NCBI GenBank assembly: GCA_040006935.1
Contig: JBDTVZ010000001.1
Coordinates: forward strand, 295,772 to 359,771
Length of the DNA: 64,000 nt
Source of the DNA: Candidatus Dojkabacteria bacterium
Lineage (GTDB): Bacteria; Patescibacteriota; Dojkabacteria; J137
Direction: 5' to 3'
Shown here piece after piece: positions 2,749-51,537 of the stretch (its first letter is position 1; the number at the start of each line of letters is the position of its first letter). The notes beneath the pieces are model-generated. The model was not told where the DNA came from. It worked only from the letters and a program-made list of their open reading frames with translations, and searched no databases. The translations under genes were made by a program, and so were the position numbers.

Positions 2749-2802
2749 GGGCGTGTTACGCCCAAGTTCTTTTGTGTCATGGTGAGCGGAGTCGAACCAT
2801 GA
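2749..2802. repeat. 54-bp GC-rich element, family R1: hairpin GGGCGTGTTACGCCC followed by TGTGTCATGGTGAGCGGAGTCGAACCATG
   Basis: Identical at 54 of 55 positions to 3606-3659. Contains two perfect hairpins. Confidence 0.8.
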
Positions 2803-2809
2803 TTTTTCA

Positions 2810-3538
2810 TTATAAAAGTTTAGTTAAATCATTTTTAAATTCGAATTGGAAATCACTCAAGGGTTTATACCCACCTATCTTATTTAATACATTATTATAC
2901 AATTGATTCCAGTAATTATACTTAATTTGAGGATCACTTTCATTAATAAATTCCCCTAATAATTCCAGAAACTCTTTATTCCATTCTCCTAAATCCTTAA
3001 TTAATCTCTTATCACTTACATACCACTTTTCATTGCTAGCATAGAGAGCTTTTATTAACTCATTAATAGCTACATGCATAGATAATAAGGTTGAATCTTT
3101 GTCACTATTAAGATACCTAGTTATTTTATTATTTAAATGATAAATCGAGAAGCGAACATCGTACTCTAATCTTTTATCAAAAATCCTTGGTTTCGCATTT
3201 TCTCTTACGTAATCTCTTAAAGTTGTTGTTTCACCTTCTTTATCAAAAAGTATTTTACTTTCATAAATAATAGGAGGACGGTCACCTTTTTCCATCTCTT
3301 TTTCGGTGGATCTTTTAAGTTGTTGATAGGAAATAAAGGTAAGATCTAACTTAATACCCTCAATAACAGGATTAAGAATAGTAAATGGTCTATCTTCTTT
3401 AGTTATTACCTTAAAATCTAAATCACTGTCTGGACCAAATTCATCCCTAACATAGGAACCAAAAATAAAAGCAGCAATATATTCATCATACTGTTGAAGT
3501 TGCCTTATTTTTTCTATAACTACTAGCGGAGAGGACAT
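2810..3538 (-). CDS. nucleotidyltransferase-domain protein (KNTase/LinB-like minimal NTase plus C-terminal helical domain)
   Basis: FGSYVRDEFGPDSDLDF matches the GS..(D/E).D nucleotidyltransferase signature. 242 aa. Confidence 0.65.
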   Translation of the reverse strand: MSSPLVVIEKIRQLQQYDEYIAAFIFGSYVRDEFGPDSDLDFKVITKEDRPFTILNPVIEGIKLDLTFISYQQLKRSTEKEMEKGDRPPIIYESKILFDKEGETTTLRDYVRENAKPRIFDKRLEYDVRFSIYHLNNKITRYLNSDKDSTLLSMHVAINELIKALYASNEKWYVSDKRLIKDLGEWNKEFLELLGEFINESDPQIKYNYWNQLYNNVLNKIGGYKPLSDFQFEFKNDLTKLL

Positions 3539-3605
3539 ACTGAGTTGAAACTATAGTAATTAATATAATCAATGCCTGAGTTTAGTGTTAACTCAACATA
3601 TGATA

Positions 3606-3719
3606 AGGGCGTGTTACGCCCTAGTTCTTTTGTGTCATGGTGAGCGGAGTCGAACCATGTTCTATATTTCTGATGGGATTGACGTGCCCTCACTTCGTTC
3701 GGGCTCGCAATGACAACAA
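3606..3719. repeat. composite MITE-like element: an R1 copy plus terminal inverted repeats TTGTGTCAT...ATGACAACAA, ending in the GGCTCGCAATGACA module
   Basis: Direct repeat of 2749-2802. The right end matches the family ends at 9690-9704 and 51520-51535. Confidence 0.6.
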
Positions 3720-3787
3720 TAAATAATTATAAATGATCAATTATGAATTATAAGTCCTTATTAAAAAAATTGAGATTCTTCTATTAA

Positions 3788-3866
3788 CCTCCTGCCGTCA
3801 GGCACGGCAAGCTCCATGCCAGCATGCCTAAGGCAGCCGAGGAGGCAGGCAAGCAGGGCAGGCTCA
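3788..3866. repeat. GC-rich imperfect palindromic element
   Basis: CCTCCTGCCG...CGAGGAGGCAGG inverted arms in an otherwise AT-rich spacer. Confidence 0.5.
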
Positions 3867-3901
3867 TTCTGAGATTCTTCTTTTAATTTTTAATTATTAA
3901 T

Positions 3902-5266
3902 TTATAATTGTATTTCCTCTTGCATACTTGGAATATAGCAACTGTTAATTCTCTCACCTTCAAAATATTCTTTTAAAGCTGTTGATCTGTCAATTTCCGC
4001 ATGAATTAAGAATACTTTCTTAAGCTTTTCGTTTGTAAATCTTTTTAACCAAGCTGAATAATCATTTGTATCTCCGTGTGCAGAAAATCCTTTTAATAAA
4101 TGAATTTTAGCTTTTACACTTATGTTTCTACTTCCAATTACAACATTCTTAGCTCCTTCAGTTAATTCTCTTCCTAAAGTTCCTTCTGCTTGATAGCCAA
4201 CAAATATCACAGCATTCTTTGGATTTTCTAATGATCTAGATAAATGCTCTACAATTCTTCCGCCGTCTGCCATTCCACTTCCTGCAATAACAACTTGACC
4301 TGTTTTGCTAGCAATTCCTTGTGATTGTTTATATTTATTTACATAAATTAAACCTTCAAAGTCGAACAAGTTTTCTTCTCCATGTTGTAATGCAGAAATA
4401 TAAATTCTTGTAACTCTTTGAGCTAAAGGACTATCTAACCAAACTTTCAAATCTCTAGTTAGAGCTCCAGCTTGTTTTGCAATTTTTAAGTCATTTAAAA
4501 TTTCCTGAGTTCTTTGTACTGCAAACGATGGAATGAATACACTTCCTCCAGTGCTTACAGTATTACTTATAAGTGTAATCATCTCATTTACAGATTCTTG
4601 TCTTTCTGGGTGAAATTGTCCTCCATAAAGAGATTCTACTAAAACATAATCAGGTTGAGATCGATATTCTCTATCGAATGTATCGATAATATTTGATCCC
4701 ATTCTTCCAATATCACCTGAGAATATTATCTTTTTCCAAACGCCATCATCTTCAATATCTACCTCAATACTTGCAGCTCCTAAAATATGTCCAGCAACTA
4801 AATAAGTTACTTTAATTCCATCTGCAGGTTCGAAAGTCTCATCAAAATTTACTGGCTTAAACTTAGCAATTGTTTTTATTGCATCATTATTATCGTAAAC
4901 AAGAGCTTTAACCTTAGTATACTTTCCATAGAATTCACCTCTCTTAAAATTACTCTCTTGTATTTTGGCAGAATCTAATAAAAGCTCAGTTGAAATTTGA
5001 ATTGTATTGCTTGTTGCATAAATTACACCTTCGAAACCATTCTTTGTAAGCTTTGGAAGCATTCCTGAATGGTCAATATGAGAATGAGTAAGTAGAGCGA
5101 AGTCTAAATCTGTAGGATTATATGAAAGTTCTTCCAAATTCAAGTGTTCTACATCCGGACCTTGAAACATTCCACAATCCACAGCAAAAGTACCATGATT
5201 TGTTGTTACTACATAGTTAGAACCTGTAACGGTTTTAGCCGCACCGCAAAATTTAATTTTTATCAT
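3902..5266 (-). CDS. metallo-beta-lactamase fold beta-CASP ribonuclease (RNase J / CPSF-like)
   Basis: HSHIDHSG motif. 454 aa, with a beta-CASP-like C-terminal half. Confidence 0.65.
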   Translation of the reverse strand: MIKIKFCGAAKTVTGSNYVVTTNHGTFAVDCGMFQGPDVEHLNLEELSYNPTDLDFALLTHSHIDHSGMLPKLTKNGFEGVIYATSNTIQISTELLLDSAKIQESNFKRGEFYGKYTKVKALVYDNNDAIKTIAKFKPVNFDETFEPADGIKVTYLVAGHILGAASIEVDIEDDGVWKKIIFSGDIGRMGSNIIDTFDREYRSQPDYVLVESLYGGQFHPERQESVNEMITLISNTVSTGGSVFIPSFAVQRTQEILNDLKIAKQAGALTRDLKVWLDSPLAQRVTRIYISALQHGEENLFDFEGLIYVNKYKQSQGIASKTGQVVIAGSGMADGGRIVEHLSRSLENPKNAVIFVGYQAEGTLGRELTEGAKNVVIGSRNISVKAKIHLLKGFSAHGDTNDYSAWLKRFTNEKLKKVFLIHAEIDRSTALKEYFEGERINSCYIPSMQEEIQL

Positions 5267-5438
5267 TGAGAAAATTATTAATAAGTAAGATAAACCACCT
5301 CAAACCCATATCTAATTGGCAGGCAATGAGGAAAAATTCAATATTAAATCGCTAAATGATAACAGAAATTGAGCGAAAAATGCTAAGATTAATGCAGATA
5401 ACAGCTACAGAAGCTAGATTACAGATAATTGTGTAAGT

Positions 5439-5481
5439 TTATTCTGTTATCTGTTATCTGTTATCTGTTATCTGTTATCTG
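5439..5481 (+). promoter_or_regulatory. tandem heptamer array (GTTATCT x5 plus one degenerate copy) ending 5 nt before the rnpA start
   Basis: Read directly from the sequence. Inverted copies CAGATAA lie at about 5395-5428. This sits in the divergent promoter region between the RNase J-like gene and rnpA. Confidence 0.6.
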
Positions 5482-5486
5482 TAAAT

Positions 5487-5810
5487 ATGTTGCCAAAACA
5501 TTTAAGACTTCCTTCCAAGGAAATTGTACGAATAGCTAAGAATGGAAAGCGATTTTCAGGTGAACTTTTTGATTTAAAAGTTTGGTACGATAATACTTTG
5601 GGAAATCCTTTAATGACAATATCTATTTCAGTGAAAGTCGATAAGAGATCTACTGTGAGAAATAAAATAAAAAGAAAACTGAGAGCAGTATGGGCAGAAT
5701 TACTTAAAGAAAATAAAATTACAAAAGGGAAGTATTTAATAATTGTAAAATCTCCAAAATTAGAAGAAACTGAGAATTCTGAAATTAAGAAATTACTTTC
5801 CTCAAAGTAG
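5487..5810 (+). CDS. rnpA: ribonuclease P protein component
   Basis: Small basic protein, MLPKHLRLPSKEIVRIAKNGKRFSG...RNKIKRKLR, typical of RnpA. Confidence 0.7.
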   Translation: MLPKHLRLPSKEIVRIAKNGKRFSGELFDLKVWYDNTLGNPLMTISISVKVDKRSTVRNKIKRKLRAVWAELLKENKITKGKYLIIVKSPKLEETENSEIKKLLSSK

Positions 5811-5814
5811 AATA

Positions 5815-6123
5815 TTACATTCTCTCGTAACCGTGGGGACTGGGATTAGCTCTTATAAATTCCTTGATCTCTTCCATTTTTATCTCTTTAGAAGTGCTCA
5901 AAAGCTCTTGTAAAAATAGAAACAATTCCTTCTTATCTATTTTAATTATAAAGCTGGCTTGAAGTTGTTTTATTTCCCAGGGTTGGATTGCCAACTCTAA
6001 TAAATCTGTAATATCCCATAGTGTCATTCTTTCTTCTAGAGAAGCTATGAGTTCTTTAAAAGAATTACAATTTATCCAATCAAATTCAGTTGTTTTTGGA
6101 AATTCCATGATTTTAAAATTCAA
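5815..6123 (-). CDS. small acidic hypothetical protein, paralog 1 of 3
   Basis: About 100 aa. Shares a DWIN..S.EELI.S motif with the two following ORFs. Confidence 0.45.
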   Translation of the reverse strand: MNFKIMEFPKTTEFDWINCNSFKELIASLEERMTLWDITDLLELAIQPWEIKQLQASFIIKIDKKELFLFLQELLSTSKEIKMEEIKEFIRANPSPHGYERM

Positions 6124-6403
6124 TCTGATTTATAAATTTTTGAACATTTTCTTTACTTAAATTAGGAAATTCTTCATTTTCCATTGCATTACTAATCCTT
6201 TCTATTATATCTTCCAGAGCCCAATGTTGTATAAATTCATATTCTTTAGAAGAGATATAATTTCCTTTTTTTAAAACTATAATTAATAGTTTTTGAATTT
6301 CAGTATCATCAAAGAAGCATCGTTCTCTTATAGATTCTACGAGTTCATCAATATTTCCAGATCTTAACCAGCTCTCTATTTTTACCTCTTTAGGCTTTTC
6401 CAT
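6113..6403 (-). CDS. small acidic hypothetical protein, paralog 2 of 3
   Basis: Tandem paralog, overlapping its neighbour by 11 nt. Confidence 0.45.
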   Translation of the reverse strand: MEKPKEVKIESWLRSGNIDELVESIRERCFFDDTEIQKLLIIVLKKGNYISSKEYEFIQHWALEDIIERISNAMENEEFPNLSKENVQKFINQIEF

Positions 6404-6418
6404 AAAATAATATTAGAT

Positions 6419-6742
6419 TTAAAATTCAGAAACAACAGAATCTACAGTAAAACCTTCACCTATTAGATATTGTTTTATCACTCCTGTTCCAAGCTCGGGC
6501 AAATCCTCATTATGAAAAGCTTCTACAACCTTATCTAAAATATCGGCACAATTAGCAGCACTTATAAAGATTTCCTCTTCTTCAAGCAGAGGTCGTTTTT
6601 TTATTGCAATGGAGAACAGTAATTGAATCTGTCGAGGCTTCAAATTTGTATTAGTTAATATAGATTCAATTAATTCTTCTAGACTTCCAGAAAAATTTAT
6701 CCAATCAATGACATCCTGCTTTTTCTCTTGTCTTATTTCCAT
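6419..6742 (-). CDS. small acidic hypothetical protein, paralog 3 of 3
   Basis: Tandem paralog (VIDWINFSGSLEELIESI). Confidence 0.45.
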   Translation of the reverse strand: MEIRQEKKQDVIDWINFSGSLEELIESILTNTNLKPRQIQLLFSIAIKKRPLLEEEEIFISAANCADILDKVVEAFHNEDLPELGTGVIKQYLIGEGFTVDSVVSEF

Positions 6743-6752
6743 ATTTATTAAA

Positions 6753-9329
6753 TTAATTATTAATAATTTGTAAATGTTGTTCTTTCAATTTCTCAACTTC
6801 TGTCGCCAAAATTTCCACATACAATGCATAACCAATTGTAGAAATATACCCACTCTGTTGGTCTCCTAAGATATTACCTGCACCTCTAATTTCTAAATCT
6901 CTACTTGCAATTCTAAACCCTGCGCCTAAGTCTTGATTATCCACCAAAGTTTGGAGTCTGTCTAGATATAATTTAGGTTTAATTTTCTTTTCATTCGCTT
7001 CTTCATTCGTAATTCGTAATTCGTCATTATCTTCTAATTTTGCCCCATCATAAAGTAGGTAACAGTATCCTTGTATATCTGATCTTCCAACTCTTCCTCT
7101 TAATTGATAAAGTTGTGATAATCCAAAATTTTGAGCTCTATTAATAATCATTGTATTAACATTTGGAATGTCTAAGCCATTTTCGATAATAGAAGTTGCA
7201 ATCAAAACGTCATGTTTTTTAATATAAAAATCAGACATAATTCTATCCAATTCCTGTGGACTCATTTGACCATGTGCATGAACAAATTTAATTCCAGGTA
7301 AAAGTCTTTTTAATTTTTCCTCAGTTGCTTTAATCGACATTACTTGGTTATGTACAAAGTAAACTTGGCCTCCTCTAGAAACTTCATACTCAATTGCTTT
7401 TATTGCTCTGTTAAGGCCTGCCCGCCCTCCTGACATGTCGGGAGCAGGCGGGTCGTTTTTAATAATTTCTGTTTTAACTGATTTTCTATTTACTGGAGGC
7501 GTAGATATAATGGATATATCTTGGATAGAAGAGAGTGCCATGCTCAAAGTTCTTGGAATTGGTGTCGCACTTACGGATAATACATGTACCCCATAGTTTA
7601 GAGTTTTGATTTTTTCTTTTTGTTTAACTCCAAACTTTTGTTCTTCGTCTACCACAAGAAGTTTTAACTTTTTAAATTTAACATCATTACTTAATAATCT
7701 GTGAGTTCCAACAACAATGTCCACTTTCCCAGTATTCATTTTATCTACAATTTGATTATTTTTTTCCTTTGTATTAAATCTTGAAATCATTTCGATCGAG
7801 AAAGGAAAGCTCTTGAACCTCTTTTTTAATACTTCAAAATGTTGTGCAGCTAGAATAGTTGTAGGAGCTAGGATGCCAACTTGGCCTCCACCTTCAACAA
7901 CTTTAAATGCAGCTCTCATTAAAACTTCTGTCTTTCCAAATCCAACATCTCCAACTAAAAGTCGATTCATTGGTTTATTTTTTGTTAAATCTGATAAAAC
8001 TTCGTTGATCGACCTGAGTTGATCTTCAGTTTCTTTAAAAGCAAATTCTTCAGTAAATATTTCATAATCTTTAGAATCTTTTTCTGAGATTGGTTCTGCA
8101 CTTGCCACTTCTCGTTTAGCGTAATGCTCAACAAGTTCGTGAGCCAAAAGACTTGTGGATTTTTTAATTTTCTCTTTTACTTGTGCCCATTGAACTCTTC
8201 CAAGTTTTGATAATCTAGGTTCTGAACCTTCGTTTCCAATAAATTTAGTAATTTTTTCAATCTGATTTATTGGAACAAATAGTTGATCTTCTCCAAAATA
8301 CCTAAGCTCTAAATATTCCATCATATTTCCATCTACTTCTTGTTGAGTTAAACCTTTGTATTCTGCAATTCCATAATCTTCGTGAACAACATAATCACCC
8401 ATTTCTATATTTCCTTCAAACTGCCTTAATAATTTTTGAATGTTTGAATTAAACTTCTTAGATTTTTCTGGACGAGTAAGGAAAATAGTCCCGTAAATTT
8501 CTCTATCAGTGAAAACTGCGATCTTAAGAGACTCTGAAATGAACCCAGCTGCAAGGTTAAGGGTCTTGAGTTGATGTGAGATTGTGTTACGAGTAAGTCC
8601 AGTGACTGAGTCCTCTTCAATATTTAACTCAGAATAGTTAGTACTTAATCTGTTGACTGTTTCATTGCTGCTTTTTATTATAATCTCGTAACTCAGTTTC
8701 CTCATTCTCTCGACCTCTAGCTCGAAAATATTAATTTTCGAATAGAACAGAGGAGGGAAGGTAAAGTCTGAATTCATTACATCAAACCCAGAAGGAGAAA
8801 TTTCTCTTAACGAATTTACAAAGATCATCTTCTCAAGTTCATTATTTTTTAATTCGTCATTCGTAATTCGTAATTTTATAGATTCTCTTTCTGTCTTGTC
8901 CTCTATAATCACATCTGAAAGATAAAATCTCTTTATAGGCTCAATCTTTCGACCATATAGTTCGTCAAATAAATACAATGACTCCATTTCTTCACCAAAG
9001 AATTCAATTCTGATTGGATGCTCGTAACCAATTGGCCATAATGAAACAATATCTCCCTTGATTGTATAGTCAAGCTTCTCGGTAATTTGTTCAACTCGAT
9101 TAAATATTGGGAGCTCTTCTTGTGCTACAGAAGTATCTCGAGAATTAACAGCTTGTCTTTCTAAATATTTCTTAATATTGCTAAAAGTTATGTCAGAATA
9201 AGGCTTGAGATCATTTAGGAAATCGACAATTTCTCTGGAATATAAATTTGAATATACAAAACCACCCTCGTTTTTTAAAAACAGGGGTATTAAATGCGGA
9301 AGGGTTTTTATTAACTTTATTCGTTGCAT
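6753..9329 (-). CDS. mfd: transcription-repair coupling factor, N-terminally short form (858 aa)
   Basis: Walker A GFGKT, DEEQ box, and helicase C-terminal region QLRGRVGRS. It lacks the N-terminal UvrB-homology region of the roughly 1150-aa canonical Mfd. Confidence 0.85.
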   Translation of the reverse strand: MQRIKLIKTLPHLIPLFLKNEGGFVYSNLYSREIVDFLNDLKPYSDITFSNIKKYLERQAVNSRDTSVAQEELPIFNRVEQITEKLDYTIKGDIVSLWPIGYEHPIRIEFFGEEMESLYLFDELYGRKIEPIKRFYLSDVIIEDKTERESIKLRITNDELKNNELEKMIFVNSLREISPSGFDVMNSDFTFPPLFYSKINIFELEVERMRKLSYEIIIKSSNETVNRLSTNYSELNIEEDSVTGLTRNTISHQLKTLNLAAGFISESLKIAVFTDREIYGTIFLTRPEKSKKFNSNIQKLLRQFEGNIEMGDYVVHEDYGIAEYKGLTQQEVDGNMMEYLELRYFGEDQLFVPINQIEKITKFIGNEGSEPRLSKLGRVQWAQVKEKIKKSTSLLAHELVEHYAKREVASAEPISEKDSKDYEIFTEEFAFKETEDQLRSINEVLSDLTKNKPMNRLLVGDVGFGKTEVLMRAAFKVVEGGGQVGILAPTTILAAQHFEVLKKRFKSFPFSIEMISRFNTKEKNNQIVDKMNTGKVDIVVGTHRLLSNDVKFKKLKLLVVDEEQKFGVKQKEKIKTLNYGVHVLSVSATPIPRTLSMALSSIQDISIISTPPVNRKSVKTEIIKNDPPAPDMSGGRAGLNRAIKAIEYEVSRGGQVYFVHNQVMSIKATEEKLKRLLPGIKFVHAHGQMSPQELDRIMSDFYIKKHDVLIATSIIENGLDIPNVNTMIINRAQNFGLSQLYQLRGRVGRSDIQGYCYLLYDGAKLEDNDELRITNEEANEKKIKPKLYLDRLQTLVDNQDLGAGFRIASRDLEIRGAGNILGDQQSGYISTIGYALYVEILATEVEKLKEQHLQIINN
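7425..7465. repeat. GC-rich palindromic element inserted in-frame inside mfd (encodes PPAPDMSGGRAGL)
   Basis: GGCCTGCCCGCCCTCCTGACATGTCGGGAGCAGGCGGG is about 75% GC inside a roughly 30% GC gene. Its arms match the intergenic copies at 9476-9510 and 47833-47866. Confidence 0.7.
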
Positions 9330-9410
9330 TAGAACGTAATTATAGCATGGGAAGTGTTAACCTGTTGTATATTTATTACGTAAGGACGCATCTGCCGTGT
9401 GTAGGGTTTG

Positions 9411-9467
9411 TAGACCTGAGATTCGTAGGGGACGCATTTATGCGTCCCCTATAAAAGTGCCAGAATC
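9411..9467. repeat. element family R2 (CTGAGATTCGTAGGGGACGCATTTATGCGTCCCCT...TGCCAGAATC)
   Basis: Second copy at 13231-13290. Contains the perfect hairpin GGGACGCATTTATGCGTCCC. Confidence 0.7.
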
Positions 9468-9475
9468 AAAGAGTA

Positions 9476-9564
9476 ATCCCCGCCTGCTCCCGACCAGCAG
9501 GAGGGCGGGCAGGCAACTTCATGCGGTATTGAACTGCCAGAAACAAAGAAGAGGTGGTAAGGTC
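9476..9564. repeat. element family R3 (CCCGCCTGCTCCCGAC..CAGGAGGGCGGGCAGGCAACTTCATGCGGTATTGAACTGCCAG...GAGGTGGTAAGGT)
   Basis: Near-identical copy at 47833-47914, and a partial copy at 13296-13343. Confidence 0.75.
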
Positions 9565-9606
9565 AAGATACAAAATGACGATAACTTGTGTATACTCAAC
9601 ATAGAT

Positions 9607-9704
9607 CAAGGGCGTGTTACCTGCCTGACTGCGCAGTCAGGCATGGCGCCCTTGACGGGATTGGCCACGCCTCGCTGATAAAATCAGCTCGGCTCGCAAT
9701 GACA
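9607..9704. repeat. element of the R1/R4 composite family (CAAGGGCG..perfect 18-bp palindrome CCTGACTGCGCAGTCAGG..CGCCCTTG, then ACGGGATTGGCCACGCCTCG...GGCTCGCAATGACA)
   Basis: The palindrome was read directly. The right module recurs at 3670-3719 and 51497-51535. Confidence 0.65.
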
Positions 9705-9714
9705 TCCAAGCAAC

Positions 9715-9750
9715 AAAAAAGGCTCCTTACGGAGCCTTTTATTACTTTTT
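9715..9750. terminator. bidirectional intrinsic terminator hairpin (AGGCTCC TTAC GGAGCCT flanked by A and T runs)
   Basis: GC stem with T runs on both strands, immediately downstream of the minus-strand DEAD-box helicase gene. Confidence 0.6.
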
Positions 9751-9761
9751 CAGATTTCTAG

Positions 9762-11339
9762 TTAACTAACAAATGTTAATGCATTACCTTTTTTACCCGC
9801 TCTTCCTGTTCTTCCAATTCTATGAACATAATCTTCATATGTCGCTGGTTCATCATAATTGATCACATGACTAACGTTTGGTATGTCTAGACCTCTTGCG
9901 GCAACATCAGTTGCAATAAGGATACTGATCTTTTCATTCTTAAATTTATATAACGCCTGTTGTCTTTTGAACTGAGATTTATCTCCATGAATGCTGTCTG
10001 CCTTAAATCCAGCTGTTGAAAGCTCTCTTGTAAGTTTGTCAGCACCAATTTTTGTTCTGGTAAAGATGAGTACTTTATAAAATTCAGGTTTGTTTAAAAG
10101 TTCTTTTAATGTATCTATTTTATTTGCTCCTGGTGCAACTCTAATAATGTCTTGGTCAACATTTTTTGCTGTATCTCCTGTTTTTACAGAAACTTTAACT
10201 GGATCTGTAAGAAATGAATTTATGATTCCTTCCATTTGCTTCTCCAATGTAGCAGAGAAGAATAGTGATTGTCTTTGCTTAGGAAATTTTTCTACTAAGA
10301 ATCTGACATCATCTACAAATCCCATGTCCAACATTCGATCAACTTCGTCTAAAACAATGTTTTTAAATCCAGAGAGGTCCAACATTCTTCTATTTACTAA
10401 ATCCTTTAATCTTCCTGGTGTTCCAATTACAAAGTTGAATCGTCTTCTCAATCCATACATTTGGGCTCTTATGTTAGCTCCTCCAATGCATAATACGGAA
10501 TACATATTCATAAATTTACTAAAATCTCTAAATTCATCTTCAATTTGTAGTGCCAACTCTCTTGTTGGAACAATAATCAAAGCTTGTTCGTTTGGATTTG
10601 CAAGTACTTTACTTATAAGTGGAAGCAAAAATGCAGCAGTTTTACCTGTTCCAGTGTTTGCGATTCCAAGTACGTCTTTGCCTTCTATAATTAGAGGTAT
10701 TGTTTGATCTTGAATTGGAGTCGGATTTTTATATCCCTTCAATTCAACATTCTTTTTAACTCTAGCATCTAATTTGAAGTCGTTAAATTCGTATTTAGCA
10801 ACGTAAGGTATTTCTTCTACTAATTCACCTTTTTTAATATATTTGCTTTGATTTATTACTGACGAAAATCTTGCGCCTCTATTCCCGCCCCTATAACCTC
10901 CTGATGATCTACCATAACTTGAACTTCCGCCTCTGTATCCACCTGATGATCTGTTTTGGGAATAACTGCTTCTGTTTTCTGTTCGGTTGTAACCACCTTC
11001 AGGTCTGTTGTAATTGCCTTCTGTTCTGTTTTCGTTTTGGCTAGAATCTCTTCCTCCAAAATTACTATCTGAACTTGGTCTTCTATCATTTCCAAATCTT
11101 CTTGGACCTCTATTTGTTGATGCTGGTCTGAAAGAATAATCTGAGTCAGATCTTCTAGTTTCTGAATCGAAAGGTTTTCGTTCTGGTAAACGTGAATTTC
11201 CGCTTAAGAAATCATTCTTTGGACCTGTTGAAGAAGAATTAAAATCTCTTCTTGGTCTTTCTGTTCTATCCGAAGCTCCTTTAAAAGGATACTTTCTCTT
11301 TTGAAAACCACCTGGTTTTCTGTTGTTGTTATCGTACAT
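9762..11339 (-). CDS. DEAD-box ATP-dependent RNA helicase with an N-terminal low-complexity RGG/YG-rich extension of about 180 aa
   Basis: Q-motif region, GTGKT, DEVD, SAT and HRIGRTGRAG motifs. The N-terminus is SGGYRGG repeats. Confidence 0.85.
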   Translation of the reverse strand: MYDNNNRKPGGFQKRKYPFKGASDRTERPRRDFNSSSTGPKNDFLSGNSRLPERKPFDSETRRSDSDYSFRPASTNRGPRRFGNDRRPSSDSNFGGRDSSQNENRTEGNYNRPEGGYNRTENRSSYSQNRSSGGYRGGSSSYGRSSGGYRGGNRGARFSSVINQSKYIKKGELVEEIPYVAKYEFNDFKLDARVKKNVELKGYKNPTPIQDQTIPLIIEGKDVLGIANTGTGKTAAFLLPLISKVLANPNEQALIIVPTRELALQIEDEFRDFSKFMNMYSVLCIGGANIRAQMYGLRRRFNFVIGTPGRLKDLVNRRMLDLSGFKNIVLDEVDRMLDMGFVDDVRFLVEKFPKQRQSLFFSATLEKQMEGIINSFLTDPVKVSVKTGDTAKNVDQDIIRVAPGANKIDTLKELLNKPEFYKVLIFTRTKIGADKLTRELSTAGFKADSIHGDKSQFKRQQALYKFKNEKISILIATDVAARGLDIPNVSHVINYDEPATYEDYVHRIGRTGRAGKKGNALTFVS

Positions 11340-11586
11340 ACGTAACTGTAAAAAATAATATTATCCCGCTAAACCAAGCTCTAAAACCATTTTTAAGCAT
11401 AAAGCCGGTTCGAACAATAATCTGTTTCGTAAAACGAAACCTATTTAGCTTCTCAGGAAAAATATTTGTTTCTTACACAAGACAAGAAGCTAATTGCGAA
11501 GATAGGAATATTATACCACAGATTCGATCTAAAAGCTACTTTAAGTAGAGTTCTTGGCGAACCATACCATCTAAGACTATCCATGA

Positions 11587-12315
11587 TTACTTACTCTCTT
11601 TAGAATAATAAGCTATACATTTCACTAGATAGTATAACCAGAAAATACTTACAATAATGGCTCCAGATAAGTATTCTCCCGGAACTGGTGAAGTATAAGT
11701 TATTACTTTCCCATTATCTAAAATATAATTTACAATTTGGTAAATACTAGTTGGTATCAAGATTAAACTACTTAAACTAAATATAGCTAATAAAGTAAAA
11801 TTGTAAGTTTTAGCAATCAAACTATATGGTGAAACTGGACCACTAATTCTTTTTATAAATAGAATATTTAATAAAATATGAAGTGCAAAAATAATTAAAG
11901 AACTGACCAGTAGAGAGACTCCAATTACTAATTCTTCACGCTGAGCAGTTGTATTTACAATATATTGATTACTATTAATAGTAATTAAGGATTGATTATC
12001 ACCTAAGTAAGTAGCATCCGGAGCTATCGGTTTTGAATCAACAGGAGTCGGTTGATAATAATTATTAACTTGATAACTAAATTGATAGCCACCAATGTAA
12101 CTCATGGTCGCTCTTAAAATCGATATCAGGCCTGTTGCGATGAATACAATACTCAATAGGCAAATCCCATAGTAATAAACTTGTAAAATTCTACCCACAC
12201 TTATTTTTCTTGGATGAGAATCTTTTAATCTACCTGTTAGAAACGAAACTCCACCAATCAAAACTCCCAAAAATACCATGAGACCGGCAATAAATAAGAA
12301 TATGCTTGTAGACAT
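11587..12315 (-). CDS. hypothetical polytopic membrane protein (242 aa)
   Basis: Several hydrophobic helices. No motif recognised. Confidence 0.45.
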   Translation of the reverse strand: MSTSIFLFIAGLMVFLGVLIGGVSFLTGRLKDSHPRKISVGRILQVYYYGICLLSIVFIATGLISILRATMSYIGGYQFSYQVNNYYQPTPVDSKPIAPDATYLGDNQSLITINSNQYIVNTTAQREELVIGVSLLVSSLIIFALHILLNILFIKRISGPVSPYSLIAKTYNFTLLAIFSLSSLILIPTSIYQIVNYILDNGKVITYTSPVPGEYLSGAIIVSIFWLYYLVKCIAYYSKESK

Positions 12316-12445
12316 AAATATGTTTTAAGATTTAATTAAATACAGTATACATTCTTTGCTATACCATTACGAGTAGTAAGAATAGCCTATTTAATATTTC
12401 ATCCTTCTGTCCTATAATCCTATTAATATTCTTTATACCCATATT

Positions 12446-13222: not shown

Positions 13223-13230
13223 TGTAAGGA

Positions 13231-13290
13231 CTGAGATTCGTAGTGGACGCATTTATGCGTCCACTCATAGATTGCCAGATCCAGCTTAGA
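13231..13290. repeat. element family R2 copy
   Basis: CTGAGATTCGTAGTGGACGCATTTATGCGTCCACT matches 9420-9455. Confidence 0.7.
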
Positions 13291-13295
13291 TCCAA

Positions 13296-13343
13296 CCCCA
13301 CCTATCTTTAACTGCCTTGTGAGTAAATGAGGTGGTAAGGTTC
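13296..13343. repeat. partial R3 copy (AACTGCC..GAGGTGGTAAGGT module)
   Basis: Matches 9528-9564 and 47880-47914. Confidence 0.55.
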
Positions 13344-13378
13344 ATAAATATTATTCTCATTCTCTCCTCCTCTTTGTA

Positions 13379-13435
13379 ACCTGCCTGCCGTCCGTGTCTG
13401 CCGACAGGCGTCAGGCACAGAAGGAGGGAGGGAGG
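13379..13435. repeat. element family R5 (CCTGCCTGCCGTCCGTGTCTGCCGACAGGCGTCAGGCACAGAAGGAGG)
   Basis: Second copy at 40095-40142 (GCCTGCCTTCCGTGTCTGCCGACAGGCAAGGCAGGCACGGAAGG). Confidence 0.7.
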
Positions 13436-13470
13436 AGTTATTAACTCCCCTAACCCCTCTTAACAAGAGG
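13433..13470. repeat. element family R6 (GAGTTATTAACTCCCCTAACCCCTCTTAACAAGAGGGG)
   Basis: Inverted copy at 46070-46107. Confidence 0.65.
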
Positions 13471-13499
13471 GGAAACCTCACACTTCAATTTGAGAAACA

Positions 13500-13528: not shown

Positions 13529-13546
13529 AGCCCACTTATTTTAATT

Positions 13547-17960: not shown

Positions 17961-17966
17961 ACATGC

Positions 17967-19268: not shown

Positions 19269-19269
19269 T

Positions 19270-40142: not shown

Positions 40143-40146
40143 TTAT

Positions 40147-42982: not shown

Positions 42983-43585
42983 TTAAGATTTTCTACTTAC
43001 AAATTTATTTTCTTTTATATAAAATCTATAATCAAATTCCTTAGCTTTAGATATTCCAACTCTTTTAGTTTTAATAATCTTCGATTCAGGTAATTTAAAC
43101 CCATCATCCATAATATAGATCTCTGATTTTTCTGAAGTTAAATCAATTCCATCTAATTCTTTTGTAATTCCTAAAGCTTTGCATAACTTTCCTGGTCCTG
43201 AAGTAAGGCTCTTTTCATCCGCCTTCGCTAACGCTTCGGCGGACAAGTTCCTTAGCTCTTTCATTTTATCTATTCCATCAATTGGTTCTAAAGCTCTAAT
43301 CAAAACACTTGTTGGAACTTCTGCAACAACATCCAGACAAAAGTGAGTATGAATAGAGTAAATGTAAGAATTTCCAGGTTTAGAAAATAGAGATTTATTC
43401 CTTTTGGTTTCTCCTTTAAAAGCATGTGCGGCTTCATCTTGGTTTGCAAGATAGGCTTCTACTTCTACAATACGGCCAGAAATAATTTGGCCGTTCAAAT
43501 TACGAACTAGAACCTTTCCTAAAAGTTCAGGAGCGAGTCTTATAGCATTGCGATTGTAGAAAGATTGATTTAGAATTTGCATCAT
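42983..43585 (-). CDS. mpg: 3-methyladenine DNA glycosylase (MPG/AAG family)
   Basis: AIRLAPELLGKVLVR...GRIVEVEAY...GNSYIYSIHTHFCLDVV is characteristic of the Mpg family. Confidence 0.7.
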   Translation of the reverse strand: MMQILNQSFYNRNAIRLAPELLGKVLVRNLNGQIISGRIVEVEAYLANQDEAAHAFKGETKRNKSLFSKPGNSYIYSIHTHFCLDVVAEVPTSVLIRALEPIDGIDKMKELRNLSAEALAKADEKSLTSGPGKLCKALGITKELDGIDLTSEKSEIYIMDDGFKLPESKIIKTKRVGISKAKEFDYRFYIKENKFVSRKS

Positions 43586-43709: not shown

Positions 43710-43722
43710 CTTATCCCGATAA

Positions 43723-43795
43723 AGCTGGAAGTGAGATTTGAACTCACGATCTACGGTTTACGATACCGTTGCTTTACCAACTAAGCCATTCCAGC
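43723..43795 (-). tRNA. tRNA-Thr (anticodon CGU)
   Basis: I folded it by hand as a cloverleaf: acceptor GCTGGAA/TTCCAGC, D-stem GCTT/AAGC, anticodon stem ACGGT/ACCGT with loop ATCGTAA, T-arm GTGAG TTCAAAT CTCAC. No encoded CCA. Confidence 0.8.
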
Positions 43796-44127
43796 TTTAT
43801 CAGGACTCTCCATACTTGCCAGCCAGACTGGTCCCCTTGGACGGATGCTACATCGCCAATAAGCGAAATTATACATTAACCTATAGAAATTTTCTGAAAA
43901 GAAATATCATAATTTTCTAAATACTTCGATACAAACTAATTATACTGACAGGTAAAAACATTTGGACAGTATCTGTACGATCTTATATAGATGATTTTTA
44001 TTTGATTTTCTTTTTTAAATACCCTAAACTAAATCTAGTGACATATACGTTACTAAATTGCTCGATATATCTCCATACATAAAGATAAAAAGCAATTATT
44101 AAAAATAATATTTTTTATTTTAGGTTT

Positions 44128-46052: not shown

Positions 46053-46069
46053 AAATCGTAAATAACATT

Positions 46070-46107
46070 CCCCTCTTTGTAAGAGGGGTTAAGGGAGTTA
46101 TAAAACA
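46070..46107. repeat. R6 element (inverted orientation)
   Basis: CCCCTCTTTGTAAGAGGGGTTAAGGGAGTTATAA is the reverse complement of 13433-13470 with a few mismatches. Confidence 0.65.
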
Positions 46108-46111
46108 ATAA

Positions 46112-46149
46112 GGACCGCCCAAGAACCTTATCCTGCTTTCGGGGCGGTA
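46112..46149. repeat. R7 element (GGACCGCCCAAGAACCTTATCCTGCTTTCGGGGCGGTA hairpin)
   Basis: Related copy at 51142-51179 (GGACCGCACAAGATCTTTGTCGTGCTTTCGGTGCGGTA). Confidence 0.65.
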
Positions 46150-46151
46150 TT

Positions 46152-46230
46152 AACTCCTCCCGACCTCCTCCCCGCCTGCCTCTTTAAAATAGGTCTAAAA
46201 TTTGAAATCGGCGGGCAGGTTAAAAAGAGG
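46152..46230. repeat. long imperfect GC-rich palindrome (CTCCTCCCGACCTCCTCCCCGCCTGCCTCTTT...CGGCGGGCAGGTTAAAAAGAGGAGGAG)
   Basis: The inverted arms were read directly. Confidence 0.5.
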
Positions 46231-46237
46231 AGGAGAA

Positions 46238-47746: not shown

Positions 47747-47788
47747 ATGATTGATTATAAATTAAATACGATGAGGTGTCTTTAATAA

Positions 47789-47914
47789 CCCCTCCTGATC
47801 CTAACGGATCTTCCTCCCCCTAGGGAGGTGGCGACTGCCTGCTCCTGACTAGCAGGAGGGCGGGGAGGCAACTTCATGCAGTAAGAAACTGCCAGGAGAG
47901 TAGGTGAGGTGGGC
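47789..47914. repeat. cluster of GC-rich elements including an R3 copy (47833-47914)
   Basis: GACTGCCTGCTCCTGACTAGCAGGAGGGCGGGGAGGCAACTTCATGCAGTAAGAAACTGCCAG..GGTGAGGTGGG matches 9476-9564. Confidence 0.7.
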
Positions 47915-48000
47915 TAAAGCCAACATAAATCTATGGCTCGCAAAGCTCGCTAAGATTTATAGCTGTAAATGTCATGAATAATGTATGATATATTATAAGT

Positions 48001-49113
48001 ATGGACGAAATCGGAACCGAAACTAAAAAGAAAGAACGATTGATAAGCAAATACTCACTCCCGATGATGAGAGAATACTTATCTAATTTGAAAAACAATA
48101 ACTATTCCAAAGAAACTTTAGAGAATTATGCCAGAGATTTAGAAATTTTTTCCTCTTACTTAGCTTACTTAGATATCACTTTCGATAAAATAGATAAACT
48201 ATTAATTTCCGATTATAAAGGATTTTTAAGAGAACAAAATTACCTTCCAATACTACATAAATATCAAGCAGGTAGAGAAATCACAGATATTGATGTAGAT
48301 AAAAGTAAACAAGATATTTCCGAATTAAAAAAAGCAATGTATAAAGGACAATTATCCGACGCTTCTGTAAATCGAATGCTTTCATCGTTAAGATCTTACC
48401 TATCTTTTTTAGTGGACGTTGATCAAGCGATTCCAATCCCACCAAGTGCAATTAAAATGATTAAAGCTGAAAAAAAAGAGAAACAAGTTGCAGAACTAAG
48501 TGAGCTTGTGCATTTAATTGAAAGTCCGTTTCAATTTGAAGCAGAGCCAATCATTAAAGCGAGGAATAGAGCAATTTTAGAATTAATATTTTCGACTGGA
48601 ATGAGAATTTCGGAAGTAGTTAACTTAAATCGTGATCAAGTGAAGATGGATAATAACCAAATTGTTGATGATAAAACCTATATTATGGGAAAAGGTAAAA
48701 AACAAAGATTTGTATATTTAACTGAACGTGCAATTCAATTTATGAATGAATATTTGAAAATGCGAACTGACGATTTCCCTGCAATGTTTATTCCGACAAA
48801 AGGAACTCGAAAAGCTACAGAAAATCCATATATTGTAAGGCTTTCTCAAAATTATATTCAAATGAAAATTAAAGATTATCGAACACGATTAGGAATTGTA
48901 GTTCCAACATCCGCACATAGCTTAAGGCATGGTTTTGCAACTTACATTGCAGAGGAAGGAGCAAATCCCGCAGCAATACAAAGGCTTCTAGGGCATTCCT
49001 CATTGCAAACAACTTCTAAATATGTTCACGCTTCGGATAAATTTGCAGAGGATGCTCATAGAAAGTTCCATCCATTACAGGAAAATGACAAATTACGAGT
49101 GACGAATGACTAA
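48001..49113 (+). CDS. tyrosine site-specific recombinase (XerC/XerD/phage-integrase family)
   Basis: R...HSLRHGFAT...LLGHSSLQTTSKYVH catalytic region (R-H-R-Y), with an N-terminal SAM-like core-binding domain. Confidence 0.75.
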   Translation: MDEIGTETKKKERLISKYSLPMMREYLSNLKNNNYSKETLENYARDLEIFSSYLAYLDITFDKIDKLLISDYKGFLREQNYLPILHKYQAGREITDIDVDKSKQDISELKKAMYKGQLSDASVNRMLSSLRSYLSFLVDVDQAIPIPPSAIKMIKAEKKEKQVAELSELVHLIESPFQFEAEPIIKARNRAILELIFSTGMRISEVVNLNRDQVKMDNNQIVDDKTYIMGKGKKQRFVYLTERAIQFMNEYLKMRTDDFPAMFIPTKGTRKATENPYIVRLSQNYIQMKIKDYRTRLGIVVPTSAHSLRHGFATYIAEEGANPAAIQRLLGHSSLQTTSKYVHASDKFAEDAHRKFHPLQENDKLRVTND

Positions 49114-49195
49114 TAGTACTCTTAATTCATAATTCATAAGGAATTCATATTTCGGTGCTAAAATAATCCATAAAGTAATTTTTATAAATTAAGAT

Positions 49196-49912
49196 ATGCA
49201 GTCAACACCAGGTTTAATTCAAGAATCCAGTACTGTTTTCGGTAGTTTTATGGCTCAAGTTTACGGATGGATGGTAATTGGGTTAATGGTAACTTTTGCA
49301 GTCGCATTCGGAGTTGAATTTATAACAGAAAGAAATGAGCAAATATATCTATTACTCGCAACACTATCTCCATTTATTATAATTGGCCAGCTTATTATTG
49401 TATTAGTGATGGCATTCCTCTGGAGAAAAATGAATGTATTTATATCTGCAGGACTATTCCTCTTCTATTCTTTAACAATGGGATTATTTTTTGGAATAAT
49501 ATTTTTAGACTTTACTTCAAGTTCGATTCTTTTAGTATTCGGCGCAACAATCGCAACTTTTGTTGTAATGGCATTATTTGGAACTTTAACTAAACAAGAC
49601 TTAACATCCTGGGGAAGATTAGCATTATTTGGTTTACTTGGATTAATAATTGCGACAGTAATTAATATAGTTTTTTATTTATTCAATCCAGGATTAGCAC
49701 AGTCATTTGAATGGGTTTTAACATATTTAGGAGTTGGAATATTCTTGATTTTAATTGCTTACGATACTCAAAAATTGAAAACAATGGCTGCAAGTGCAGA
49801 GCAAAGTGGTTTGGGAATGGCAAATGTAGCAATACAAGGAGCCTTAACACTTTACTTGGATTTTATTAATATATTTATAAGGCTCTTATTTATTATGGGT
49901 AAACGTAAGTAA
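49196..49912 (+). CDS. Bax-inhibitor-1/YccA family membrane protein
   Basis: 7-TM, about 238 aa, with an N-terminal ...FMAQVYGWMVIGL pattern typical of BI-1/YccA. Confidence 0.5.
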   Translation: MQSTPGLIQESSTVFGSFMAQVYGWMVIGLMVTFAVAFGVEFITERNEQIYLLLATLSPFIIIGQLIIVLVMAFLWRKMNVFISAGLFLFYSLTMGLFFGIIFLDFTSSSILLVFGATIATFVVMALFGTLTKQDLTSWGRLALFGLLGLIIATVINIVFYLFNPGLAQSFEWVLTYLGVGIFLILIAYDTQKLKTMAASAEQSGLGMANVAIQGALTLYLDFINIFIRLLFIMGKRK

Positions 49913-49933
49913 TTAAATTTTATATTTCTTAAT

Positions 49934-51136
49934 ATGAAAAAAGGTCGGATACTATTAGGCTGCGTTTTAATTTTAGTAATTTGTTCATCTACACTATTTG
50001 GAACTATTGGTGGCTATTTAGGCGGAAGATTTTTGAACAGTGGAGGTGTGGGACAAACTCTACAGAATATTACAAACAGTAATGTTCAAGTTGTACATGA
50101 AGAATCAGAAGTAATTTCTGCAGTTGAAAATTCTACAAATTCTGTTGTGAGTATTGTAATTACAAAAGACGTTCCCAAATATGAAAATATTAATTCACCA
50201 TTAGGTAGTGATTTTGGATTTACAATTCCACAAAAAAAACAGGTAGGTACAGAACAACAAGAAGTTGGTGCTGGAACTGGATTTATTATCTCCACAGATG
50301 GAATGATAATTACAAATCGACATGTTGTTGATGATGAAACAGCATCTTACACAGCAATTTTTAATGATGGAACAAAGAAAGAAGCTAAAGTGTTAGCTCG
50401 AGATACTTTACTAGATATAGCATTCTTGAAAATCGATGGTGCTGATTACAAGCCAATACCTCTAGGTTCATCAGCACAATTAAAATCAGGACAAAGCGTT
50501 ATAGCAATTGGCAATGCATTAGGAGAGTTTTCAAATACAATAAGTACAGGCGTTATTTCTGGGCTAGGTAGAAACATTCAAGCAACAGATCAAGATGGTG
50601 GAAATGCTGAAACGCTTTCAGATATTATTCAAACAGACGCAAGCATAAATTTTGGAAATTCCGGAGGGCCACTTTTAGATATTAAGGGAAACGTAATTGG
50701 AGTAAACGTTGCGAGATCCTCCGATGGAGAAAACATTGGATTTGCAATTCCAATCGATGTAGTAAAAGATCTTATAGATATGCTTAATACAACAGGGAAA
50801 ATAGAAAGGCCAGTATTAGGAGTTCGATATATTCCAGTTGATGCAACCTTTAAAGCACAAAATAATATCCCATACGATTACGGAGCTTATATTTCTGGGA
50901 ATACTCAAAACCAAACATTAGGAGTAGTTCCTGGAAGTCCAGCAGATAAAGCAGGATTGAAAGATGGAGATATTATTCTAGAAGTTAACGGGAAAAGAGT
51001 AGATGATGCAAATCCATTATCAAATTTAATTCAATCATTTAAAATAGACGATACCATCACTTTAAAGATTTATACAAAAGGAGCAGAGCAAGACATTCAA
51101 GTAAAGTTAGAGAGATTTGAGATTCCGACTAATTAA
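49934..51136 (+). CDS. htrA: HtrA/DegP-family serine protease with a PDZ domain
   Basis: TNRHVV (His), D..LLDIAFLKI (Asp), and GNSGGPL (Ser) triad motifs. PDZ at the C-terminus. Confidence 0.85.
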   Translation: MKKGRILLGCVLILVICSSTLFGTIGGYLGGRFLNSGGVGQTLQNITNSNVQVVHEESEVISAVENSTNSVVSIVITKDVPKYENINSPLGSDFGFTIPQKKQVGTEQQEVGAGTGFIISTDGMIITNRHVVDDETASYTAIFNDGTKKEAKVLARDTLLDIAFLKIDGADYKPIPLGSSAQLKSGQSVIAIGNALGEFSNTISTGVISGLGRNIQATDQDGGNAETLSDIIQTDASINFGNSGGPLLDIKGNVIGVNVARSSDGENIGFAIPIDVVKDLIDMLNTTGKIERPVLGVRYIPVDATFKAQNNIPYDYGAYISGNTQNQTLGVVPGSPADKAGLKDGDIILEVNGKRVDDANPLSNLIQSFKIDDTITLKIYTKGAEQDIQVKLERFEIPTN

Positions 51137-51141
51137 AAAAT

Positions 51142-51290
51142 GGACCGCACAAGATCTTTGTCGTGCTTTCGGTGCGGTAAACATCCACCGTCCAGCTAAA
51201 GCTGGCCACCTCCTTCAAAGGAGGAATTCGTAGGGTCAGCCCACCTGACTTAACCTAAAGGGAGGTATTATCATCAACGTCAACTGATTA
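51142..51290. repeat. R7 copy plus further small palindromes (CCAGCTAAAGCTGG, CCTCCTTCAAAGGAGG)
   Basis: The hairpins were read directly. Confidence 0.55.
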
Positions 51291-51439
51291 TAGCCACATT
51301 TATATTCTCGGTAAAAGGGAGTTTGAGGGAAAATTCTTTTGACTTCCACGTTCCAGCTCCAAAATTATTTTCTCTCAAAACTTTTTTTGCTTACTTTTTT
51401 TAGTTATAAAAAAAGTAAGGTAAGAAAACCTCTCGAGTA

Positions 51440-51537
51440 ATGGTTCGAGAGCCTCATCATGACAATAGGCAGAAATCCCATCGGGAAATCAAATCACGGG
51501 ATCGCCACGCTCGTCTTCGGCTCCTCGCAATGACAAC
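51440..51537. repeat. R4-type element ending ...ACGGGATCGCCACGCTCGTCTTCGGCTCCTCGCAATGACAACA
   Basis: The right module matches 9657-9704 and 3670-3719. Confidence 0.6.

Follow-up and report, generated by a model that had tools for sequence, protein, structure and literature searches.

Introduction

Two superfamilies of repetitive extragenic palindromes (REPs), GTAG and CGTC/TGTC, were defined by Di Nocera et al. 2013 (PMC3733652). GTAG REPs have stems of 5-13 bp and loops of 2-20 nt (Table 1 of that paper). The class is further marked by tens to thousands of copies per genome and by an associated RAYT (REP-associated tyrosine transposase; Y1/HUH) gene with repeats on its flanks. In the CGTC superfamily an unpaired terminal tag, CGTC or else TGTC or CCTC, goes with stems that start with A-T and T-A pairs, and CGTC-1 and CGTC-4 correspond to RPE-6, RPE-4 (Rickettsia palindromic elements, RPEs) and Neisseria dRS3. 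Both superfamilies lie mainly between co-directional and convergent genes, and both have units inside genes, frequently uvrA/B/D and recBCD. The CGTC repeats are without a known transposase and have hosts in five phyla, the candidate phyla radiation (CPR) not being among them; roles of REPs at the RNA level are argued for in the same work. [quoted passage not shown] Here we describe GC-rich repeats, families R1 to R7 and a 92-bp inverted-repeat element, in 64 kb of a metagenome-assembled genome (MAG) of Candidatus Dojkabacteria (WS6, CPR/Patescibacteria; contig JBDTVZ010000001.1). We call this whole stretch the window, and all copy counts for this genome refer to the window only.

CPR/Patescibacteria genomes measure ~1 Mb and are usually called streamlined. 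We propose that the GC-rich blocks of the window are probably a mixed population of REP-type palindromes, mobile and largely selfish, that comprises GTAG REPs, TGTC-tagged singlets and doublets resembling REPINs (REP doublets forming hairpins), and untagged palindromes. These are new families in a new host phylum, of a REP/RPE kind that is already known and has not been described in this group.

Results

GC-rich repeats form discrete blocks

The window has a GC content of 32%, about equal overall in non-coding (33%) and coding (32%) sequence. Its Mfd and MurF proteins and a glycosyltransferase are 100% identical to proteins that NCBI lists for a Candidatus Dojkabacteria MAG. Repeats were located by self-BLASTN of the window, by repeat finding and by direct reading of the sequence. 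All seven families were found where a first-pass annotation of this DNA had placed them, as were the 92-bp element at 17967-18058 with its perfect 10-nt inverted repeat and both of the perfect hairpins that it had quoted. Self-BLASTN returned nine GC-rich repeat pairs at E < 1e-3, with identities from ~80% to 98%. Long GC-rich stretches (60% GC or more over 40 nt or more) were in six-fold excess (16 observed versus 2.6 expected under a first-order Markov model). For 30-nt GC islands the excess was mild (29 observed versus 18.7 +/- 4.3 expected), so most short GC islands within genes are due to chance.

The first-pass annotation had almost every intergenic gap above about 100 bp filled with such repeats, which proved to be an overstatement: elements are present in 9 of the 23 gaps of at least 100 bp. 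The element-bearing gaps have 36-48% GC versus 21-34% in the remaining ones. The blocks are discrete repeats, neither single-copy sequence nor uniformly GC-rich spacer. Every element is a hairpin or a nest of hairpins. None gave a match in Rfam, either at the gathering thresholds or at E <= 1. The elements fall into three classes: GTAG-tagged REPs (R2), TGTC-tagged hairpins (R1, R4 and the 92-bp element) and untagged palindromes (R3, R5, R6, R7 and CCTGACTGCGCAGTCAGG).

R3 is read through in frame by host genes

Two of the four R3 copies in the window lie inside genes, in Mfd and in MurF. These in-frame copies, which are a hallmark of RPE-like elements, were overlooked in the first reading. 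The four copies are as follows.

7416-7452, minus strand: R3 core CCCGCCTGCTCCCGAC-ATGT-CAGGAGGGCGGGCAGG, in frame in Mfd
9478-9570, plus strand: R3 core (9478-9514) with the extension ...AACTGCCAG...GAGGTGGTAAGGT
17299-17355, plus strand: R3 variant carrying 21 additional nt following its left arm, in frame in MurF
47785-47921, plus strand: two short GC hairpins, then a long R3 (core 47834-47868 plus extension), in a divergent gap by an Xer-like recombinase gene

For comparison we used four loci (L011, L012, L040 and L041) from three sister assemblies (GCA_034680565.1, GCA_039922295.1 and GCA_047445235.1); the loci are syntenic with positions 1-19,000 of the window and show ~72-84% nucleotide identity to it in genes. 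In Mfd (6753-9329, minus strand), the 36-nt R3 core adds 12 residues (PPAPDMSGGRAG) between the DEAD and Helicase_C domains. This insert is absent in 39 of the 39 closest aligned homologues, including three at 75-77% identity. In the DNA alignment the sisters read GAC-TGG-AAT versus GAC-R3-CTT AAC in the window, and BLAST collinearity with L011 and L012 breaks exactly at the R3 site. In MurF (16446-17960), the R3 variant adds 18 residues (SPPVYLTNGKAPDAGGRA) that are absent in all 29 homologues.

The Mfd site (residues ~626-637) is also an indel hot spot, with unrelated inserts of 7-17 residues in the Dojkabacteria-like proteins P0007, P0010, P0014 and P0015. Another candidate, the GC island at 43213-43251 in the MPG glycosylase gene, was rejected, as no insertion was seen there when the protein was aligned to solved homologues.

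R3 occurs well beyond this genome. Scans that demanded exact arms recovered the core in 10 loci from GTDB genomes (Saccharibacteria, Paceibacterota, Patescibacteria, an unclassified bacterium and a Scalindua bin) and in 13 metagenome loci; de-duplication left 20 distinct sites, four of them in the window. The consensus is CCCGCCTGCTCC-YGAC-N1-4-CAGGAGGGCGGGCAGG. The core measures 33-36 nt, and its 16-nt arms are identical across CPR classes with only the 1-4-nt loop varying, an identity that is partly built into an exact-arm scan. Nine of the sites fall within real genes that have Pfam support, namely those for Mfd, MurF, UvrB, YidC, MreC, a Mur ligase, an S41 peptidase, a SAM methyltransferase and a protein with a phosphoribosyltransferase domain (ComF-like by eye). 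The inserts mostly fall just outside or between Pfam domains, that in MreC falling within the matched domain, and copies are found in either orientation and across four reading frames. The length of R3 is a multiple of 3 in all nine genes versus three of nine clearly non-coding copies (hypergeometric, p about 0.005). These data indicate that host genes read through R3 and that only frame-preserving copies survive. Phage were considered as vectors of R3 and rejected, since R3 had no match in IMG/VR.

The gene directly downstream of the long R3 copy (48001-49113) encodes an Xer-like tyrosine recombinase of 370 aa, ~45 residues longer than the XerC/XerD models, which it matches below their cut-offs. 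We rejected it as an integron integrase because it scores as XerC/D-like and not as IntI.

Elements differ between sister genomes

The sister loci lack nearly all of the window's elements but carry elements of their own, a presence/absence polymorphism of the kind that the first-pass annotation had proposed to look for. By our count there are roughly 15 modules in the first 18 kb of the window versus 2-4 in each comparable sister locus. Block 2656-3899 is absent in the sisters, and the spacer between the GatC and beta-CASP genes measures 51-121 bp there (between called genes) versus 1,236 bp here; the extra sequence consists of R1, a nucleotidyltransferase gene, a second R1, R4 and a 92-nt GC block. 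Conversely, Mfd of L012 carries a different insert, an in-frame 90-bp TGTC doublet (VIPDERSEDPGSHSKVINKMPHHANAVRHD, L012 903-994) in a variable linker ~400 residues upstream of the R3 site. The MurF-Ddl spacer, which houses the 92-bp element in the window, has a related, rearranged element in L040 and is unrelated in L041.

Gene content differs as well. The ORF (open reading frame) at 976-1623 (215 aa, no family match; region 748-1629) and the nucleotidyltransferase gene at 2810-3538 are absent from L011 and L012, and in L040 and L041 the hydrolase and MurF genes are separated by three or four additional called genes (window 16369-16445).

R2 has the form of a GTAG-tagged REP

Two R2 copies were found in the window.

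9416-9464, plus strand: first R2 copy, with the REP GTAG+GGGACGCA-TTTA-TGCGTCCC at 9425-9448
13231-13345, plus strand: second R2 copy, with the REP at 13240-13263, then a partial copy of the R3 extension that lacks the core

The pair (9416 / 13231) aligns over 32-49 nt at 86-97% identity. The units read GTAG, (G/T)GGACGCA, TTTA, TGCGTCC(C/A), with the tag unpaired and immediately 5' of a perfect 8-bp GC-rich stem that closes on a 4-nt loop, within the published GTAG dimensions. A compensatory G>T / C>A stem change separates the two copies. Judged by its sequence, R2 would be a textbook GTAG-tagged REP, in agreement with the GTAG definition in tag, stem and loop. A third GTAG unit, at ~51229, reads GTAG, GGTCAG-CCCAC-CTGACT, which brings the 64 kb to 2-3 such units. 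No R2-like copy was present in 41 loci from other genomes. A generic scan of the window for GTAG hairpins gave 19 matches versus ~10 expected, and all but the two R2 units were AT-rich and chance-like; the scan was uninformative in this AT-rich sequence.

A 93-aa ORF with a GTG start (9397-9678, no family match) spans R2, R3 and a nested palindrome next to them. It is most likely an artefact of the GC-rich repeats, which are poor in stops. In L011 a gene of 96 aa is called at the corresponding position.

TGTC-tagged hairpins occur as singlets and inverted doublets

The second class carries an unpaired TGTC directly before the stem. Its members and the features among them are as follows.

2748-2801, plus strand: R1 copy a, hairpin GGGCGTGTTACGCCC, then TGTC-tagged ATGGT-GAGCGGAGTCGA-ACCAT, G at 2775-2801
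2810-3538, minus strand: nucleotidyltransferase gene (MntA/Pol-beta-like), between the two direct R1 copies
3606-3716, plus strand: R1 copy b and an inverted R4 unit, 3632-3716 forming a doublet with tags outward (TGTCAT...ATGACA)
3783-3874, plus strand: cluster of short hairpins rich in CCTGCC/GGCAGG (92 nt, 61% GC)
17967-18058, strand undefined: 92-bp inverted-repeat element in the MurF-Ddl spacer, a TGTC doublet of 17971-17997 (plus) and 18017-18054 (minus)
39354-39389, plus strand: TGTC-like GC motif GTGTCTTTGCGAGGAGCGCAGCGACAAAGCAATCTC in a loop of a PMT_2 glycosyltransferase
51486-51540, minus strand: R4 copy, TGTCATTGCGAGGAGCCGAAGACGAGCGTGGCGATCCCG on the minus strand

The two R1 copies (2748-2801 / 3606-3659) share 98% identity over 54 nt. 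The tag precedes a stem at 2775, 3633, 17971 and, on the minus strand, 18054, as it does in the R4 units and in units of L012 and L040. In R1 and both arms of the 92-bp doublet the stems start with AT (ATGGT/ACCAT, ATCCC/GGGAT and ATTTC/GAAAT) and the loops share the conserved core GAGCG[A/G]AGTCGA; these window units have perfect 5-bp stems and 12-23-nt loops. The L012 units are also AT-first (ATCCCGGA/TCCGGGAT and ATGCCGCA/TGCGGCAT), with 8-bp stems and 14-15-nt loops. R4 units have the TGTC tag and start ATTGCGAG, with a weaker AT-first stem and less regular pairing; R4 ends in ...CTCGCAATGACA at ~3715, 9700 and 51537. The tails of the TGTC units read CTA, CTT, GAT and GTT, with a ...CCCA ending in one R4 unit only. 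A generic TGTC/CGTC scan of the window gave 12 matches versus ~15 expected, all AT-rich, chance-like hairpins. The PMT_2 glycosyltransferase motif brings no net length gain relative to 29 homologues.

The perfect 10-nt inverted repeat of the 92-bp element is ATTGTGTCAT; its arms extend to 19 nt at 89% complementarity, it holds no ORF, and it folds at -46 kcal/mol (z = -9). A possible AT/AT duplication at its ends is indistinguishable from an extension of the palindrome. Its 26-nt left end recurs exactly on six IMG/VR contigs (45-63% GC), on some as full doublets. In a scan of viral contigs with three inner stem positions left free, a small sample but one unbiased for those positions, 17 of 18 copies were complementary, with four stem types. 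Among the five distinct viral hairpin sequences, 96% of cells pair versus 15-52% in slid controls, and in two of the pairs both sides change. Overall, the TGTC hairpin was found on viral contigs of 35-65% GC and, within 186 kb of CPR loci, in the Dojkabacteria sister loci only.

Untagged palindromes nest and recombine as modules

The remaining elements are untagged palindromes.

9604-9702, strand undefined: nested palindrome TCAAGGGCG...CGCCCTTGA enclosing CCTGACTGCGCAGTCAGG, then an R4 unit (minus) ending ...CTCGCAATGACA
13361-13474, plus strand: R5 long imperfect palindrome (13361-13441), then R6 hairpin (13442-13474)
40088-40146, plus strand: R5 copy, a hairpin with a 15-bp stem between convergent genes
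46068-46236, minus strand: composite of inverted R6, R7 hairpin (46112-46152) and a long palindrome, the end of which matches 13363-13390 in inverted orientation
51142-51255, plus strand: R7 copy, then three short hairpins, one of them GTAG-tagged

Identity between copies is 88% over 59 nt for R3 (9482 / 47837, with a part-copy of the extension at 13296), 89% for R5 (13382 / 40096), 91% for R6 (13442-13474, inverted at 46068-46100) and ~80% for R7 (46112 / 51142), in which a compensatory C>A / G>T change retains the stem. The modularity claimed in the first-pass annotation is real and extends to nesting. R2 and a tail module occur with the R3 core at 9416-9570 and without it at 13231-13345; at 9604-9655 one palindrome lies inside the loop of another; and at 46068-46236 both ends of 13363-13474 reappear, inverted and with other contents enclosed. 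On the Scalindua rubra bin contig MAYW01000382.1 (L002, ~2020-2058), the R3 core is followed by CTAACCCCTCTCTTATAAAGAGAGGGGAA, which by eye is like CCCCTAACCCCTCTTAACAAGAGGGGAA of R6, a likeness not significant at BLAST E <= 0.05.

Elements favour gaps with a gene 3' end, but a terminator role is not supported

Elements are found in 8 of 14 non-divergent gaps, which contain a gene 3' end, versus one of nine divergent gaps (one-sided p about 0.04). This placement matches the published distribution of REPs (PMC3733652). Do the repeats then serve the transcripts that end there? The first-pass annotation had sited them at 3' ends, where they could act as terminators or attenuators. The siting stands, as eight of the nine bearing gaps hold a gene 3' end. 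The terminator role is not supported: a canonical bidirectional terminator (hairpin plus T-run) lies at 9717-9740 as a separate sequence beside the repeats, and by eye a similar hairpin with a T-rich tail follows the BipA gene at ~13503-13525. Among the repeats, only the R1 hairpins show the terminator pattern of a GC hairpin and a T-run, and they do so on the plus strand, opposite to the minus-strand genes that adjoin them. These separate terminators and the strand of R1 speak against a terminator role of the repeats.

A broader form of this idea is that the elements are RNA signals of benefit to the host, 3'-UTR (3' untranslated region) hairpins that end transcription or shield mRNA from 3' exonucleases and are kept by selection. 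The 3'-end siting, the compensatory changes that keep the stems, the presence of G-U pairs in R3 on one strand only and the RNA-level roles argued for REPs (PMC3733652) all speak for it. However, besides the evidence on terminators, intergenic R3 copies stand in either orientation to the flanking genes, R3 also lies within essential ORFs, and the sister genomes do without elements at the same spacers. We therefore regard host-beneficial RNA signals as an unlikely explanation of the population.

Other features of the window

In the window ARAGORN found only tRNA-Thr and tRNA-Lys. A 17-nt inverted repeat with 94% complementarity flanks the tRNA-Thr gene (43722-43796, minus strand) and lengthens its acceptor stem (region 43714-43859), and directly upstream of the gene lies a 54-nt, 57% GC island (43806-43859) with no Rfam or ARAGORN match. 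An AT-rich repeat family (~6% GC; 33 nt, 94% identical, inverted), separate from the GC-rich ones, occurs between genes at 3877-3909 and 58818-58900, the latter copy making a 30-nt inverted repeat. Tandem TTATCTG heptamers lie at 5447-5483, just upstream of the RNase P protein gene, with an inverted partner copy at 5406-5428.

Discussion

The elements come and go on an evolutionary timescale and nest in one another. They persist only where they do little harm, in spacers with a gene 3' end and at frame-preserving positions at or near domain edges, where read-through adds 12-18 residues (Mfd and MurF). We infer that they are non-autonomous and largely selfish. They would probably be copied as folded single-stranded DNA hairpins by an enzyme acting in trans, for which a RAYT, of the HUH tyrosine transposase type, would be the obvious candidate in the GTAG class. 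Their high GC content would reflect the need for a stable, specifically recognised hairpin and not a mutational bias of the host, and any effect on mRNA 3' ends would be secondary.

Several observations weigh against this reading. We took 60 ORFs of at least 80 aa as genes and scanned 59 of them against Pfam (GatC, 2360-2665, was left out); none of the 59 encoded a RAYT / Y1_Tnp protein or another plausible mobilising enzyme. The only transposase found in the window belongs to an IS3-family insertion sequence (IS; 23531-24667), whose orfA (HTH_Tnp_1, 23596-23859) overlaps orfB (rve, 23825-24655) as in a frameshift pair and whose imperfect 31-nt inverted repeats lie at 23535-23565 and 24633-24663 (TGACCGCACCCCCTT / TGTCAACACCCCCTT). 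As mobiliser or parent of the 92-bp element, which the first-pass annotation had called a MITE, the IS was rejected: the inverted repeats are unrelated, with ~5 nt shared with TGTCATCCCGAGCG. Neither L040 nor L041 offers a clean empty site for the 92-bp element, since the L040 spacer already holds a related element and that of L041 is unrelated. The flanks of R3 showed no target consensus or target-site duplication, and genomes elsewhere gave only 1-2 R3 cores each in exact-match scans. Finally, in three orthologous methyltransferase genes (L004, L033 and L035), R3 is identical at 32-33 of 33 positions, against 66-84% identity in flanks of 80-150 nt; by our calculation, the chance of 33 unchanged positions at 75% identity is ~1e-4. 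A decaying selfish insert would not show such conservation. This conservation could stem from selection acting on the sequence, from conversion by other copies or from repeated insertion.

R3 might act as a selected nucleic-acid signal with a function, or as a mini-element that homes actively, common to CPR classes and held near-invariant even in essential genes while the codons around it diverge by 16-34%; we give this only a small chance. It appears quite improbable that R3, if not the other families, serves a CPR-wide protein or guide RNA as a conserved recognition site, under purifying selection and not self-spreading. The invariant arms with their variable loop, the methyltransferase orthologues and the low copy number per genome outside the window are what such a site would predict. 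However, the arm identity owes something to the scan itself, the closest relatives of the Mfd and MurF hosts are without R3, the copies sit at unrelated positions in unrelated genes, in either orientation and any of four frames, and a spacer of varying length is ill-suited to a dimeric site bound on double-stranded DNA. That the elements arose as artefacts of assembly or binning, or are contaminating foreign DNA wrongly joined to an AT-rich MAG, is scarcely credible: their GC differs from the background, and one R3 match is on a short Scalindua-binned contig and two are on metagenome contigs of 65% GC, but the in-gene copies keep long reading frames of conserved proteins, the flanks on both sides are collinear with the sister genomes and the same element types recur in independent assemblies.

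If the population is of the mobile REP type, as we favour, a dense load of several families, with read-through in Mfd and MurF, would mean that genomes called streamlined still tolerate or use small mobile DNA. The published host range of each tagged REP superfamily would gain a phylum. In practical terms, such elements create spurious ORFs such as that at 9397-9678 and unexplained insertions in protein alignments from MAGs. R3, which crosses lineages and is better conserved than the genes of its hosts, offers a handle on how REPs without a known transposase are copied or maintained.

How do the elements compare with known systems? The first-pass annotation had likened them to the RPE, REP/BIME or Correia situations. 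The REP/RPE likeness is borne out by the GTAG tag of R2 and by the TGTC tag and AT-first stem elsewhere. Correia elements are a poor match, as ends here begin TGTCAT and no TA target-site duplication was seen; we set them apart without a consensus comparison. R2 resembles the RAYT-mobilised GTAG REPs and REPINs (Bertels and Rainey 2011; Di Nocera et al. 2013) in its tag, its 8-bp GC stem, its 4-nt loop and its location downstream of genes, and the doublet architecture of the 92-bp element is REPIN-like. In contrast to those systems, the window has only the few GTAG units described and no RAYT gene among the 59 ORFs scanned.

The TGTC units share with the CGTC/TGTC superfamily the unpaired TGTC tag, the A-T/T-A stem start, the occurrence as singlets and inverted doublets, the placement, the in-frame units (including those in DNA-repair genes) and the want of a known transposase. 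They depart from it in dimensions, since the superfamily has stems of 8-9 bp and loops of 4-5 nt versus the 5-bp stems and 12-23-nt loops with the GAGCG[A/G]AGTCGA core seen in the window, and in the 3-nt unpaired tail CCA, which they do not share. Because of these differences in stem and loop size and in the tail, we file them as resembling the superfamily and not as proven members. As to MITEs, the 92-bp element has terminal inverted repeats and no ORF, but a parent IS with matching repeats was not among the insertion sequences of the window, the only one being of the IS3 family.

The mobile GC clusters of yeast mitochondria are likewise short GC-rich palindromes in a very AT-rich genome, nested, modular and occasionally in frame in a gene (VAR1). 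They differ in being organellar, without sequence relation and with a family structure of their own; the parallel is one of resemblance only. The RPEs of Rickettsia (RPE-1 and relatives; Ogata et al. 2000) are, like the elements here, palindromes richer in GC than the small AT-rich genome that carries them, in frame in housekeeping genes, variably present between related genomes and confined to tolerated positions. This likeness is one of behaviour, and R3 measures 33-57 nt versus about 100-150 nt for RPE-1. Whereas RPEs are bound to their genus, R3 spans several CPR classes and extends beyond them.

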